Below are positions 6,233 to 55,862 of a DNA stretch of 64,000 nucleotides, in pieces. Made by a program: the position numbers and the translations under genes. Each line of letters starts with the position of its first letter. Position 1 is the stretch's first letter. The notes under the pieces are model-generated. The model was not told the DNA's origin, did not search any database, and saw nothing but the letters and a program-made list of their open reading frames with translations. Location: assembly GCA_963799845.1 (NCBI GenBank), contig CAWCYI010000004.1, forward strand, positions 1,440,001 to 1,504,000, written 5' to 3'. Source of the DNA: an uncultured Nitrososphaerota archaeon. Lineage in GTDB: Archaea > Thermoproteota > Nitrososphaeria > Nitrososphaerales > CADDZS01.

Positions 6233-6317
6233 ATTTAGGGATCTACGACCAGATGGACAATTTGAATCAGGATAGGTAACTCTCTAAGTGGTGAACGATA
6301 TGTCTTTCCTTCTTATA

Positions 6318-6383
6318 ATGATCAAGGGCGGCGAGTACCTCGAAAGGAATCAGAAGATTGACACGATTGTCTTTAACAAAGTT
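6318..6383 (+). pseudogene. Short remnant of a copA-like gene (phosphorylation-loop region)
   Basis: Translates MIKGGEYLERNQKIDTIVFNK, versus LIKGGEYLERTEKIDTVVFDK in copA (about 2713-2775). Confidence 0.75.
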
Positions 6384-13438: not shown

Positions 13439-13690
13439 TTCATATACTAGTTACCATTGATTCTTATACAGAATTTTTTTCTGCGTTTCTACACACGTGA
13501 GCACTTTTTGGCCGAAGAGCTGACGTTCAAGCTCTGTTCAATGCGTTCAGCTCGTTTCAAGCTCTGTAAGCTCAGAAGAGCTCGTTTCAAGCTGTTACAC
13601 AGAGAGGGGGCCCCTAGGGAAGCTCCACATCCGCGCGTTTGTACTCGGCAGATTGCTCTCTAGCAGCTCGTTTCAATCTGAACGGAGCTT
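13439..13690 (+). repeat. Interspersed AGCT-hairpin element, copy 1 (three 30-bp units)
   Basis: AGCTCGTTTCAAGCT units at about 13518, 13549 and 13579 plus a degenerate unit at 13665; aligns with the reverse complements of 27272-27389 and 42340-42539. Confidence 0.88.
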
Positions 13691-13916
13691 AGAAAAAACG
13701 CTGGACTCTGACTTTTGCAAAGGGCACGAGATGACCCTTTTTCTGTAGGTAACGGGGGTTTTTGCTTTCAAGCGTATCAAAGGTGAGAAGGATTCGATCT
13801 TCAAAATCGTAAAAACGTTAAGAAAATCATCCTAGAATGCGGATCAGCTTTTCGGAGCTGCGTCCCATTCTATTCTTTTCTTAAAAGAGCAGTATTCCGT
13901 CTCCGAATTGTGAGGC

Positions 13917-15344
13917 TTAACTTCCAAGAACATGCTCGTGGTAATGCTCGACAGGCATGAGTGATCCTACCGCGCGTTGGACGACCTCGTTCATCGCGGG
14001 ATGGATGTGGATTGCTTCCTCGATAATTTCCGCGCTTCGAGTAGGGGCATACATCACGTTGATGATTTCCTGGATTAGCACGGATGCCTGCGGCCCGATG
14101 ATGTGCGCGCCGACAATTTCGTTGTTTGATCCGTTCACGATCACCTTGACGAAATAATCTTTGACGTTCATCGCCTCGCCCTTCGCGGTATTCTCGTACT
14201 CATAATATCCGATCATCACTTTCTCCTTGCCGAATTTCTCTACCGCCTCCTTCTCGAGCATGCCAACGCTCGCGATCTCCGGATAAGTGAAGACCGCGTG
14301 CGGAACCGCGTGGTAGTCGACCTTGACCTTTCGGTTGAGTATCGCATTGTAGTAGACCAGTATCGACTCGTAGTTTGCGACGTGGCGAAACAGGTAGTGC
14401 CCGTCCGCGTCTCCAAACGCCCAGATATTCGGTTGGGAGGTCTGGAAATATTCATCCACCTGAATCCACCCGTCGTTTGTGGTCTTGACACCGCTCTTCT
14501 CGGGATGGAGGATGTCGGTCAGCGGGCCCCTGCCGCACGCGATCATTATCTCCTCAGCATCGACCTGGATTGTAGCCCCGCTGCTTCTATCACGGGCGAC
14601 CAGACGTTTCAGTCCATCTGGAGTCCTTTGCGCTTCGATCACCTCATAGTTCGTGATCATTTCGATGTGCTTCCCGAGTACCTTTTTCGCAAGTTCCGAT
14701 ACCTCGGGTTCTTCCTCCGGGAGGAACCTTGGATTTCTTCCAACAATAGTAACCTTCGCACCCATCGAAGAAAGAAAGTGACCATACTCCGCCGCTATGT
14801 AACCGCCGCCGCAAATCGCGACGCTTTGCGGGAGTCTTGTTAGCTGAAGTACGGTGTCGCTAGTCAAATAGCCTACTTCCTCGAGACCCTTGATGTTGGG
14901 TATGATCGTCTTTGACCCGGTGGTGAGGAAAATCATGCCGGACTTGATCGTCTCGCTGCCGACCTTCATGGTGTACGGGGAAACAAACTCCGCAACGTCG
15001 TGATAGTAATCAATGTTCTCGGACGAAGACAGCCCCTGCCGGATCGATTCGATATCTTTCCCGATGAGAGATCGCATCCGTTCCATTATCTTCAGGAAAT
15101 CAATTTTGGTAATGTCGGCCTCGACGCCTAACTCCCTTGCTTCCTCGATGTGCCTCACGAGCTCGGCCGGGTAGAGCAGGATCTTTGACGGGATGCACCC
15201 ACGGGTAAGGCAGATCCCGCCCGGCTCGTCCTTGTCGATGATCGCAATCTTCATTTTGGGATTGGACTGTATCAGAGGATCAATCAGGTTTGTCGCAGAA
15301 CCGCTTCCAATAACAATCAGGTCATAGTTTTTCAATTCAACCAC
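13917..15344 (-). CDS. Class I pyridine nucleotide-disulfide oxidoreductase (dihydrolipoyl dehydrogenase / mycothione reductase-like)
   Basis: GSGSA, GGICLTRGCIPSK redox disulfide, GGGYIAAE, HIHPAMNE. Confidence 0.9.
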   Translation of the reverse strand: MVELKNYDLIVIGSGSATNLIDPLIQSNPKMKIAIIDKDEPGGICLTRGCIPSKILLYPAELVRHIEEARELGVEADITKIDFLKIMERMRSLIGKDIESIRQGLSSSENIDYYHDVAEFVSPYTMKVGSETIKSGMIFLTTGSKTIIPNIKGLEEVGYLTSDTVLQLTRLPQSVAICGGGYIAAEYGHFLSSMGAKVTIVGRNPRFLPEEEPEVSELAKKVLGKHIEMITNYEVIEAQRTPDGLKRLVARDRSSGATIQVDAEEIMIACGRGPLTDILHPEKSGVKTTNDGWIQVDEYFQTSQPNIWAFGDADGHYLFRHVANYESILVYYNAILNRKVKVDYHAVPHAVFTYPEIASVGMLEKEAVEKFGKEKVMIGYYEYENTAKGEAMNVKDYFVKVIVNGSNNEIVGAHIIGPQASVLIQEIINVMYAPTRSAEIIEEAIHIHPAMNEVVQRAVGSLMPVEHYHEHVLGS

Positions 15345-27271: not shown

Positions 27272-27389
27272 GGCATGAAACGAACTGTCCTGAGCTTACA
27301 GAGCTCGAAACGATCTGAACGCATTGAACAGAGCTTGAACATAGCTCTTCGGCCAAAAGCTTGCACGTGTGGGAACGCAGAAAAATTTT
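27272..27389 (-). repeat. Interspersed AGCT-hairpin element, copy 2 (partial, inverted)
   Basis: Reverse complement TTCTGCGTTCCCACACGTG..GGCCGAAGAGCTATGTTCAAGCTCTGTTCAATGCGTTCAGATCGTTTCGAGCTCTGTAAGCTCAG matches 13479-13590. Confidence 0.88.
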
Positions 27390-27465
27390 GGTTCTGTTCG
27401 TTCAAGCGGTGATTTTCTCGCCTGTTCGGCTGACGGTGATAAATCAAGGCCTTAAGCTTTTCCGG

Positions 27466-42302: not shown

Positions 42303-42339
42303 TGGAGCTGGAAAGAGCTTTGTAACAGGCGAAGGCTAT

Positions 42340-42539
42340 GGAACGAGCTGTTTCAATTGAATAGAGCTTGAAACGAGCTAGACACGATCTGCGGAGTACA
42401 CGTACACGGTTACAGAACTCCCCTAGGGGCCCCCTCTGTGTATAACAGCTTGAAACGAGCTCTTCTGTGAAAAAGTACGCGCGGTTGCGAAACGGCAGAA
42501 TTTTTTTCTTTAAGAATCAATTCGAACTAGGTATATGAA
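42340..42539 (-). repeat. Interspersed AGCT-hairpin element, copy 3 (inverted, two 30-bp units fewer)
   Basis: Reverse complement TTCATATACCTAGTT..TTGATTCTTA..TTCTG..GAAGAGCTCGTTTCAAGCTGTTA..AGAGGGGGCCCCTAGGG..GTACTC.GCAGAT..AGCTCGTTTCAA matches 13439-13680. Confidence 0.88.
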
Positions 42540-54185: not shown

Positions 54186-54410
54186 ATGCCAAAAGAAGGA
54201 GATTCTTGTCCAGCCTGCAAAGAAGGAATTTTGGGGTATGTCGGTATTGATCAGAATCATAGAGAGCTGAAGTGTAATAACTCAAAGTGTTCGAACAGTC
54301 AGCACGGTATTCACTCGGGCGAGTCTGTAAAGCGGAGTGGTTCCGTAACAGAAGAACATCGAGATGATAATTTCCAGACAATGGCCAGATCGCGATACGG
54401 GCAAAGATAA
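54186..54410 (+). CDS. Small zinc-ribbon protein
   Basis: CPAC...CNNSKC. Confidence 0.5.
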   Translation: MPKEGDSCPACKEGILGYVGIDQNHRELKCNNSKCSNSQHGIHSGESVKRSGSVTEEHRDDNFQTMARSRYGQR

Positions 54411-54414
54411 ACTA

Positions 54415-55538
54415 ACCTGGCCGACATAAGTTCATAGACACCTGTTGGTCAGAAGGAATTTCTTCATGTCAAGATGCGAGCAAAACCTTCGCGTTCGATA
54501 GTATTCTGCCAGGATTGATTTCAGTTCTTTCAATGACGTCGGAAAGGTTGGAAGCCTTGAGAGATCCTTCTCACCCTCGCGCCAACACTCCTCCATCATG
54601 TTGAACTCTGGCGAAGCTGTCGGGATCCATCTGACTCTGAGAGTCTTCCTGTTCTTACCCAAATAATCAGTTACGATCCTGGTTTTGTGGTGTTGCCTTG
54701 CTTTGTCAAGGAAGAGATAGAGTGATCCAAACTTCCTGTGCACCTTCTTCAGGTAGTCGAGGAATGTCTCGCCATTGAATTTCTCGTACTGCCTGAAGAT
54801 TTGTGTCCCGTCCAGGCTGATCGCTCCAAACACCACGGTGTTGCCGTGCGAGCCTGACACAATCCGAATCGGTCGAATCCCTTTGACCGCCCACACCCTT
54901 TTGGTTTCTATGTTCTGGACGAAGATTGATTCGTCTTCGGATGCTACGGTGAAGCCTTCCGGGATATTCCTGAGGAGTCTTGCGGTCCTTTTTTAAATTC
55001 GAGCCTCTCTTCGAGGGAAGCCTTGTGAAGTAACCTCTTGTCAGGGACAATTGCTCTCACTCCCCACTTCTGCATCAACCTGTAGATGTGTCTCTCAGTG
55101 TATGCCACGTCTGCTTCCTTGCGGATCATCTCCCTGACCTCCTTCACGGTCCAGCCGCATTCGTTCTTCACGACCTTCCTCTTCACCGCAATGAACTTGT
55201 TGTGATCGAGCTTCGGAGGTCTCCCGCTCCTTTCCATCGTCTTGAGTCCTTCTAGCCCATCTTTCTCGAAACGTCTAAGCCACGGTGTCGTCCATGATTT
55301 GTGCCGGTGAACTTCCCTTGCTACGTGCGACGCCGGGACACCCTCGTACTTGACCTTCAGAACGAGGAATATCCTCTTGCTTACGTTTGCGTCCCTCTCC
55401 TCTCTATAAGCCTCTTCAACAATCTCCTTCGGTGCCTGTAATCGAGACATACAACCTGAGATAGGAAGGGAAGTTGGCCAAAAATGAGAATGTCTAGGTC
55501 TGTGGCCCTTTCAGTCTAATAATTTATGTCGGCCAGGT
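54415..55538 (-). mobile_element. IS630-family insertion sequence, apparently complete
   Basis: TIRs ACCTGGCCGACATAA (54415) and TTATGTCGGCCAGGT (to 55538); TA duplicated at 54413-54414 and 55539-55540; empty site ACTAGT. Confidence 0.92.
54432..55450 (-). CDS. IS630 transposase (HTH ORF-A plus DDE ORF-B joined by a -1 shift at TTTAAAAAAG near 54990)
   Basis: ORF-A SGRPPKL; -1 frame KRTARLL..SEDES..VW..G..LDKARQH..SPEFNMMEECW. Confidence 0.88.
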
Positions 55539-55551
55539 TAGTTGACGATCT

Positions 55552-55588: not shown

Positions 55589-55804
55589 ACTAGCAGCCTC
55601 CCGCTACAGTTTCTAAAGTTTAAGGATTTCTACCATGCATTTCAGCGAAATTGATCCGTACTGGACGTTTGAAAATTGAGTTCAAGCAGCTTGGACATTT
55701 CTCGCAGGTCCTCCTCTTTCTATTCTTCCCCGTGTACCTGCAGACCTGTTCAATTCCTAAAGCGATTGTTTTCTTTCATTGATTTATTATGCAATTTTCT
55801 CCTT

Positions 55805-55862
55805 TTTCTACACGGGGGCGCAATTCTGCGTACCGAAGAGCTTGAAACGAGCTCTGTTGGCC
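55805..55862. repeat. Short relative of the AGCT-hairpin element
   Basis: CCGAAGAGCTTGAAACGAGCTCTGTT preceded by TTTCTACAC..TTCTGCG. Confidence 0.65.

Follow-up and report, generated by a model that had tools for sequence, protein, structure and literature searches.

The stretch of DNA analysed here, referred to as the window, is 64,000 nucleotides long and corresponds to C4:1440001-1504000 of G000, the genome of a soil Nitrososphaerales archaeon assembled to 4.6 Mb in 9 contigs (47% G+C, 86.7% estimated completeness). The element in question lies at 13439-13690 on the plus strand of the window (copy 1), and it represents a non-coding, modular repeat of ~440 bp in an internally deleted form. 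An initial annotation of the window had described an element in four copies, and reading the sequence confirmed that all four are present at the named positions. The family was followed through G000 and through the sister genomes G002, G003, G004, G005 and G006, of which G003 is a metagenome-assembled genome (MAG) titled Nitrososphaerales archaeon. Completeness of the sister genomes is 58-87%, and their assemblies recover repeats poorly.

The repeat in the window and in the genome

Copy 1 consists of positions 2-125 of the family profile, extra hairpins, and profile positions 337-441. The left module (13439-13517, plus strand) comprises a TATA-like box rich in A/T, the CATTGATT box and an A/T tract, together with the 'U' segment, which closes in a T5 run. 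It is followed by the phased AGCT hairpin array (13518-13593, plus strand), in which AGCT is found at 13518, 13530, 13549, 13560, 13569, 13579 and 13590. The right module (13594-13690, plus strand; profile 337-441) contains the GGGGGCCCC/CCCCTAGGG palindromes at 13606-13619 and the terminal AGCT hairpins, with AGCT sites at 13621, 13665 and 13686 on the plus strand. These are exactly the ten sites listed for copy 1 in the initial annotation. The nhmmer matches of copy 1 are located at C4:1453439-1453563, 1453555-1453594 and 1453575-1453679, and its covariance-model match at C4:1453449-1453542. The presumed enrichment of AGCT is borne out, as the densest 170 bp hold 10 sites compared with a mean of 4.5 and a maximum of 7 in 200 first-order Markov simulations. 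If up to 3 mismatches are allowed, the 16-mer core of the hairpin occurs 12 times in the window, vs 1.66 times expected and at most 5 times in 100 shuffles.

A BLAST search of G000 with copy 1 returned 126 matches at 74 loci. At some of these loci the left and right parts of copy 1 are separated by ~200 bp, and their alignment gave the full-length form of ~440 bp. The nhmmer search with a profile of 9 full-length copies yielded 94 matches in G000 that merge to 71 intergenic loci, which establishes that further copies exist elsewhere in the 4.6-Mb genome. The 71 loci include 9 full-length copies, many copies that hold only profile positions 2 to ~125-165, some that hold the right part only, and internally deleted forms. 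The open reading frames (ORFs) of the 9 full-length copies differ in frame and strand and none is common to them, in agreement with the earlier description of an interspersed, non-coding element.

The statement that the element belongs to no recognised family also stands, as no match was found in the libraries searched. Rfam gave 0 matches at gathering score in the window, two matches only (E about 0.9) on 5 full-length loci, and the adjacent signal recognition particle (SRP) RNA only on the variant loci of sister genomes. Two patterns searched against viral contigs gave 0 matches, and the plasmid and phage collections gave no match. A CRISPR array was considered and rejected, since the repeat units are contiguous and 9-12 bp apart; a crude genome scan of G000 did not find any such array.

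The left end of the element is an A/T-rich 8-mer, which occurs in varying TATA-like versions. It is followed by the strongly conserved CATTGATT box, an A/T tract and a segment of three sub-types that ends in T4-T5, and then by the hairpin array, for which two main cassette types are observed. Long forms possess a central part, closing with a repetition of the T-tract and hairpin unit, then the GGGGCCCC/CCCCTAGGGG palindrome and the final hairpins. Conservation per column is uneven along the element and ranges from 0.5 to 0.99. The columns of the CATTGATT box and the T-tract reach 0.9-0.99 in 75 aligned copies. The AGCT columns are likewise among the best conserved (0.9-0.99 in six of seven sites), and several non-AGCT parts are equally conserved. 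One hairpin loop is polymorphic, with both orientations found at the same position.

Consecutive AGCT sites across the 71 loci are separated by 9, 10, 11 and 12 bp in 57, 64, 91 and 22 cases, respectively, whereas spacings of 13-18 bp are nearly absent and strong peaks appear at 19-21 and 30 bp; these counts are not independent because the copies are related by descent. We infer from the 30-bp super-period a tandem repetition of a ~30-bp three-hairpin unit. Multiplication of the hairpin in G000 and its sister species G003 has produced a tandem array of ~30-bp units, and this multiplication places the AGCT sites one helical turn apart. AGCT as such is not avoided in G000 (20,817 observed vs 18,993 expected, ratio 1.10), and all 39 of the 39 clusters of at least five closely spaced AGCT belong to the repeat family.

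The other three copies in the window illustrate the modular nature of the family. Copy 2 (27272-27414, minus strand) is truncated, contains 5 AGCT and has an alternative left module in place of the CATTGATT box; it is matched at C4:1467327-1467395 (profile 29-100) by nhmmer and at C4:1467323-1467414 by the covariance model. In copy 3 (42306-42539, minus strand), profile 5-84 is joined to the right module 309-441, and extra hairpin units extend past the right end of the profile. Its nhmmer matches are C4:1482365-1482493 and 1482458-1482536, and the repeat runs 26 bp further. Copy 4 (55770-55862, plus strand) is a diverged relic: its CATTGATT box has itself diverged, and beside this box it has a T-rich spacer and a single AGAGCT-N7-AGCTCT hairpin. 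It was missed by both the profile and the covariance-model searches; it contains the exact 16-mer core at 55838-55853, and its left end resembles the G002 variant in a by-eye comparison. The AGCT counts given earlier, 5 in 27272-27389 and 7 in 42306-42461, are correct, and the stretch 55805-55862 has 2. The boundaries of the copies held in part: copy 3 begins at ~42306, copy 2 extends to ~27414 and copy 4 begins at ~55770.

The relationship among the four copies is evident from direct alignment. The segment 13525-13592 pairs with 27273-27340 as reverse complement over 68 nt at 91% identity, and 13573-13653 pairs with 42387-42467 over 81 nt at 83%. The AT-rich end described for copies 1 and 3 is confirmed by the match between 13447-13473 and 42504-42530, and 13665-13694 matches 55824-55853, both again as reverse complements. 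The 14-15 kb interval between copies holds inside the window and is local only, as it is not maintained genome-wide.

Two neighbouring features deserve mention. Just beyond copy 1, the positions 13700-13745 carry a short G+C stem and then a T5 run, between copy 1 and a convergent oxidoreductase gene (13917-15344, minus strand); this may be the terminator proper to that region. The window also contains a 65-nt direct repeat at 2710-2774 and 6315-6379 (72% identity, 3.6 kb apart), which probably reflects two paralogous genes.

Constraint and turnover among sister species

G003 and G003-like metagenome contigs were placed on G000 through their flanks, and seven loci are filled in both species, namely those beside C4:52752, 125012, 152211, 393649 and 1355928, C6:715303, and C7:62992. 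In this sample of seven loci, the orthologous copies are 0.70-0.91 identical with a mean of about 0.84; the averages are 0.78 for non-orthologous pairs across species (n=1062) and 0.76 for pairs inside G000 (n=1019). In the flanking genes, codon positions 1, 2 and 3 have identities of 0.909, 0.943 and 0.632, respectively, and the four-fold sites are 0.542 identical (5054/9330); a single-gene check gave 0.624. Intergenic DNA adjoining the elements is not alignable between the species. The consensus sequences of the G000 and G003-like copies are the same in 146 of 159 columns, and the 13 columns that differ are each polymorphic in both. On these figures, the copies evolve about three times slower than four-fold degenerate sites. 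Since the identity of the orthologues and of the consensus is far above that of the four-fold sites, the repeat is under sequence constraint, a pattern that neither neutral decay nor within-genome gene conversion yields, and such unusual conservation between related species suggests that it probably does something.

These values bear directly on the proposal that the copies are dead selfish DNA, that is, decaying relics of a single spread that resemble MITEs (miniature inverted-repeat transposable elements) and owe their similarity to a burst or to gene conversion. Many copies are indeed truncated or internally deleted, no near-identical pairs exist, placement and orientation are random, and the presence or absence of a copy at a site differs between species. 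Nevertheless, decay is hard to reconcile with orthologues at 0.84 and a consensus shared in 146 of 159 columns when four-fold sites stand at 0.542, and conversion within one genome cannot hold the consensus of two species together. The strongly uneven conservation (0.5 to 0.99 per column) and the persistence of related variants in at least five genomes of the genus further render this explanation improbable.

The copies also show turnover. The best pair within G000 is 94.5% identical over at least 100 bp, and the median is about 80%, in contrast to an IS630-like insertion sequence (IS) that is present in G000 in 18 copies at ~100% identity. Between orthologous copies, both 30-bp units and entire modules may be gained or missing, with one site measuring 154 bp vs 438 bp. 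Three sites are filled in G003-like DNA and empty in G000, and only two of the six mappable G004 loci have a G000 element within 2.5 kb, both adjoining the same gene. The oxidoreductase gene next to copy 1 has an orthologue in G003 that directly adjoins another gene, without intergenic space; this G003 neighbour is a long ORF. Contigs from four soil DNA runs break at the repeat copies, where the summed depth is raised, and none joins across an empty site. The comparison as a whole shows that the copies are old and occupy orthologous sites in the sister species G003, that modules are gained and lost, and that hairpin loops are flipped.

The occurrence of the array outside G000 is narrow. An exact-pattern scan of species-representative genomes matched 11 contigs of one MAG (G003) and one Myxococcales contig, which is taken as a chance match. 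With a full-length copy as query, four of 41 relatives matched: G000, G003 (18 matches), G005 (one weak match) and a distant genome (22 nt). Of 301 genomes of the order, 2 contain the fixed-spacing AGCT pattern. A covariance model built on the left 93 positions, which are conserved, detected 52 copies in G000, 27 in G003, 1 in G005 and 5 weak ones in G004; three further genomes of the genus and six from two other genera gave no match. Among metagenome contigs, 12 of 12 matches derive from G003-like organisms that are 70-86% identical to G000; no longer, gene-bearing version was present among the 12.

With the G004 variant as query, G004 itself was seen to hold at least 40 copies, and G002, which carries a third variant, gave six partial matches. 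Seven aligned G004 copies share with the G000 family the A/T box, the T5 tract, the AGAGCT-N7-AGCTCT hairpin and the GGGCCCC palindrome. They hold 1-5 AGCT each within 30 bp of the ends, without an array, and one of them has its hairpin loop inverted. The sole copy detected in G005 lies ~25 bp past the 3' end of the SRP RNA gene (the two features occupy G005:C223, 1-155 and 180-271); the G000 SRP RNA (C6:631481-631792) has no repeat copy nearby.

As judged from these alignments, the family constitutes one branch of a genus-wide superfamily with its own variant in each species. The core of this superfamily comprises an A/T-rich box, the CATTGATT box and a T-tract as well as a single AGCT-N7-AGCT hairpin; the GGGGCCCC/CCCCTAGGGG palindrome is often present too. 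The phased AGCT array is private to the G000/G003 branch, as a lineage-private expansion. The homologues of sister species with a single AGCT hairpin indicate that the array is not the conserved essence of the element.

Possible roles of the AGCT sites and the hairpins

The initial annotation had interpreted the element as a protein-binding array for chromosome organisation or segregation. In such a model, the phased AGCT would provide a double-stranded lattice for a chromatin, segregation or methyl-reader protein, gated by N4-methylcytosine (m4C) in a SeqA-like manner. The model is not an empty analogy, because AGCT is a documented m4C site in the order. For ammonia-oxidising members of the order, the available portions of the published accounts report m4C at 82-96% of AGCT sites: 96% in a Nitrosoarchaeum bin, with a methyltransferase that has no restriction partner, and 82-91% modified in two marine bins, while AGCT m4C enzymes are listed for three other members of the group (PMC6329791, PMC8919816, PMC11033074).

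G000 itself has at least nine N6/N4 DNA methyltransferase genes, including C6:1380725-1381642 and C4:33901-35847, 210552-212513 and 213679-215529. In the host's family, 10 of 10 genomes carry a conserved 305-aa SPPY-motif methyltransferase (71-92% identity), and three paralogous methyltransferase genes encode proteins of about 620-650 aa. AGCT specificity for the SPPY-type enzyme was considered and is not assignable, since it is only ~35% identical to its matches in the ammonia-oxidiser family with a 2.8-Mb closed genome.

A lattice would accommodate both this repertoire of methyltransferases and the m4C data. It would also suit the spacing of AGCT at 9-12 bp (mean about 10) over 65-75 bp, the confinement of all 39 dense AGCT clusters to the family, the conservation of AGCT columns at 0.9-0.99, and the orientation independence and constraint of the copies; a free loop orientation is what would be expected if only the sites matter. 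The distribution of the repeat argues otherwise. Regular genome-wide spacing, which would have supported the model, is not observed: the coefficient of variation of the gaps is 0.78 on C4 and 1.08 on C6, near random placement. The array occurs in just 2 of the 301 genomes, the homologues of G004 and G002 keep one hairpin and hence two AGCT, orthologous copies vary in how many hairpin units they have, and the best-conserved parts include the non-AGCT CATTGATT box, the T-tract and the first loop. The relation of strand to replichores amounts to a weak post-hoc trend on C4, with nothing clear on C6. Up to 1.1 Mb on C4, 13 copies are plus and 7 minus, whereas beyond that point 3 are plus and 9 minus (hand Fisher test ~0.07, post-hoc split), and this orientation split loosely tracks a weak turn in cumulative GC skew. 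Irregular spacing, restriction of the array to two genomes and the single-hairpin variants of sister species thus make a role in chromosome organisation or segregation a distinctly poor prospect. The AGCT phasing would rather be a by-product of hairpin duplication than a designed binding lattice, because the hairpin that is duplicated has an AGCT palindrome as its stem.

A different reading accounts better for the ensemble of traits. The repeat is a mosaic, extragenic, free in orientation, vertically inherited, rarely copied and constrained, which points to a non-autonomous repeat like BOX or like REP elements (repetitive extragenic palindromes) and the bacterial interspersed mosaic elements (BIMEs) built from them. 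We therefore regard a BOX/REP-BIME-like, non-autonomous, vertically inherited and rarely copied repeat with a cis-acting structural role for the host as the probable interpretation, on a balance that tips only somewhat in its favour. With regard to the alternatives offered by the initial annotation, the REP-like element is the one that the evidence favours, and a small RNA survives only as a live rival.

In this BOX/REP-like interpretation, a trans-acting protein would copy the element rarely by reading the conserved box and the hairpin in single-stranded DNA; recognition of both by one protein would explain their species-specific co-variation. Selection would retain the element because its hairpins and oligo-T tracts may act as cis-acting structures for the host. 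Template switching in DNA hairpins produces loop inversions, and the frequent loop inversions in the family suggest that the hairpins do form in DNA. The most likely site of action would be the ends of neighbouring transcripts, through termination or 3'-end stability. Oligo-T is an archaeal termination signal, and T5+ runs on both strands are present in 22 of the 71 copies vs 5.7% of 3000 random 150-bp intergenic segments; the two together make a role at transcript ends our preferred guess. The distance from a copy to the adjoining gene is also shorter where that gene's 3' end faces it (median 83 bp, n=73) than where its 5' end does (median 194 bp, n=63). The intergenic regions that bear an element are 17 convergent, 12 divergent and 39 tandem, and the four classes of orientation relative to the flanking genes are even (21/18/17/14). 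The neighbouring genes encode ordinary metabolic paralogues such as ABC transporters, dehydrogenases, enolase-superfamily enzymes, molybdenum hydroxylases and aminotransferases. We also note that G000 as a whole contains many paralogous transporter and dehydrogenase genes, and that at 4.6 Mb it is larger than each of 300 other sampled genomes of the order (0.7-4.3 Mb).

A number of observations weigh against the interpretation as a mobile, structurally acting repeat. The gene context relies on crude calls (longest ORFs of at least 80 aa). The split of convergent, divergent and tandem regions does not differ significantly from the 18%, 26.5% and 55% expected by intergenic length (hand chi-square ~3.8, 2 df). 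Insertion that avoids promoters would equally give proximity to 3' ends, and a terminator or 3'-end role has no other positional support. The T-tract enrichment is a property of one consensus and not of 71 independent events. Mobility is deduced only from differences in presence and absence, and deletion could give the same pattern. The initial annotation had seen no marks of transposition, and none came to light here either. A repeat search in a full-length copy and in copy 1 gave internal AGCT-based arms only and no terminal inverted repeats (TIRs). No target-site duplication is recognisable, the flanks of 45 copies lacking a common direct repeat by eye. No transposase is found among the neighbours of the 71 loci, nor was any copying enzyme found. 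The covariation check gave an RNAalifold term of -0.55 with 1 of 23 pairs doubly changed, two variable stem pairs yielded non-significant Fisher p values of 0.67 and 0.15 (31 distinct arrays), stem mismatches of G.T and A.C type are about equal (109 vs 96), and folding of the whole element gave z-scores of only -2.1 and -2.6. Covariation is uninformative here, as the stems consist nearly entirely of invariant AGCT, and since no strand is singled out, RNA is not favoured over DNA.

A rival view is that the family comprises small non-coding RNA genes. The left A/T box would then serve as an archaeal TATA box for a transcript that begins ~25 nt downstream and takes in the conserved segment and the hairpins, and selection would act on the RNA rather than on the DNA. 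An A/T-rich 8-mer is fixed at the left end and varies in G000 only among A/T-rich versions, an A/T box also lies upstream of the hairpin in the G004 variant, and the sequence is conserved to a degree that greatly exceeds the neutral level. By eye, a 7-bp hairpin and then a T-run close some of the short copies, and at two variable stem positions G.U pairs number 16+12 vs 0+2 for A.C (31 arrays). This local preference is not reflected in the overall count of 109 vs 96, covariation is not significant, and there is no Rfam match. The loops occur in both orientations at one position, which a sequence-specific RNA loop would not tolerate. In addition, the conserved T5 run lies ~35 nt past the presumed start and before the hairpins, where it should stop an archaeal polymerase, and the promoter was recognised by eye only. 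A family of small RNAs is accordingly an unlikely explanation.

The mobile elements resident in G000 were examined as possible partners. IS200/IS605, a single IS5-like gene and the IS630-like IS showed no similarity to the family. The ends of the 9 aligned full-length copies, left vs right, are unrelated to each other, and comparisons of filled vs empty sites could not place insertion borders, as the intergenic DNA is unalignable. A Y1 transposase (PF01797) has 2 matches in G000, both inside 2.8-kb IS200/IS605 copies that contain no AGCT hairpins and have unrelated ends, and 0 matches in G003, G004, G002, G005 and G006 (61-87% complete), the first four of which hold repeats. These two IS200/IS605-type elements, C4:749686-752505 and C6:728085-730901, are mutually 93% identical, and about eight more copies comprise just a 1.2-kb part, which is presumably the accessory gene by itself. 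The window has an IS630-type IS of 1.13 kb at 54410-55543, with 30-nt TIRs that are 90% complementary and a transposase split into a helix-turn-helix ORF of 168 aa and a DDE_3 ORF of 154 aa. This IS has been active recently, as its 18 copies are at ~100% identity, and no other active IS with TIRs is present in G000. It lies ~230 bp from copy 4, and another copy (C6:1051198-1052327) is 11 bp from a repeat copy.

Relation to known repeat systems

The host belongs to a little-known soil lineage that looks like non-ammonia-oxidisers. A search for archaeal AmoA gave no match in G000, and control genomes likewise gave no signal, so that this negative carries little weight. REP, BOX and MITE repeats are well studied in bacteria and poorly in archaea, and no description of such repeats in Thaumarchaeota was found in the literature searched, which left out most subscription journals. 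The present family shows clear constraint at a divergence where four-fold sites are near saturation, together with species-specific variants across the genus, a combination that would imply either a function or a durable partnership with a host protein. In practical terms, the family breaks short-read assemblies of its host organisms, and it could serve as a strain marker.

The SeqA-bound GATC clusters of Escherichia coli are not a repeat family and are spread through genes and the replication origin. They would share with the family the clustering of a palindromic methylation site on one helix face, whereas in the archaeal repeat these sites lie inside a lineage-private hairpin array. Archaeal MITEs are defined by TIRs, target duplications and a partner IS. 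The family lacks TIRs, recognisable target duplications and a partner IS, and the IS630-like IS shares no ends with it; membership among the MITEs was rejected, as there are neither TIRs nor ends shared with a resident IS. What the two have in common is the presence of tens of non-coding copies in an archaeal genome, as described for SM1-SM4 of Sulfolobus in the accessible part of a review (PMC10969869). The archaeal cases listed in that part of the review include none from Nitrososphaerales (PMC10969869).

The BOX elements of Streptococcus pneumoniae, composed of boxA, variable boxB and boxC, are closer in organisation. The family has the conserved end modules around a variable tandem stem-loop array that are typical of BOX. 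According to the portion of the BOX account consulted, both are small, non-coding, interspersed composite repeats of tens to hundreds of bp, in which end modules flank a tandem stem-loop unit whose number varies by locus and strain, and both have end modules that differ in related species (PMC3049150). The same portion attributes to BOX TIRs, target duplications and a likeness to an IS end (PMC3049150), none of which was found for the family. The archaeal host and the unit itself, an AGCT palindrome at 10-bp spacing, further distinguish the family from BOX, so that the two are likened by design and not by sequence; between domains, homology to boxA, boxB or boxC would not be expected.

With REP sequences the family shares short conserved palindromes that are extragenic, vertically inherited and slowly duplicating. 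The available text on REP/BIME elements and on REP doublets forming hairpins (REPINs) describes extragenic palindromic mosaics retained at orthologous sites and, for REPINs, long vertical inheritance, very low duplication rates and species-specific variants, all of which are seen in the family (bioRxiv 10.1101/2021.07.10.451892). In that text, REPINs are ~100-bp doublets of a ~14-bp palindrome that depend on the single-copy REP-associated tyrosine transposase (RAYT) they flank, and they are stated as not detected in archaea (bioRxiv 10.1101/2021.07.10.451892). Unlike REPINs, the family is longer and includes conserved non-palindromic boxes. Membership in a REPIN-RAYT system was rejected, as no single-copy Y1 gene flanked by repeats was found in G000 or in the five sister genomes at 61-87% completeness.

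An archaeal counterpart of REPIN-RAYT is still conceivable, in which a hairpin population inherited vertically across the genus, with species-specific, co-evolving variants, would be under selection and copied by a non-Y1 enzyme, and might be gated by m4C. The recognition hairpin is built on AGCT, which is the motif modified by the order's conserved orphan methyltransferase, and copying or binding could, for example, require the hemimethylated DNA that follows replication. We give this extension little credence. Short of it, and by analogy, the closest counterparts of the family among known systems are BOX in design and REPIN in population behaviour.

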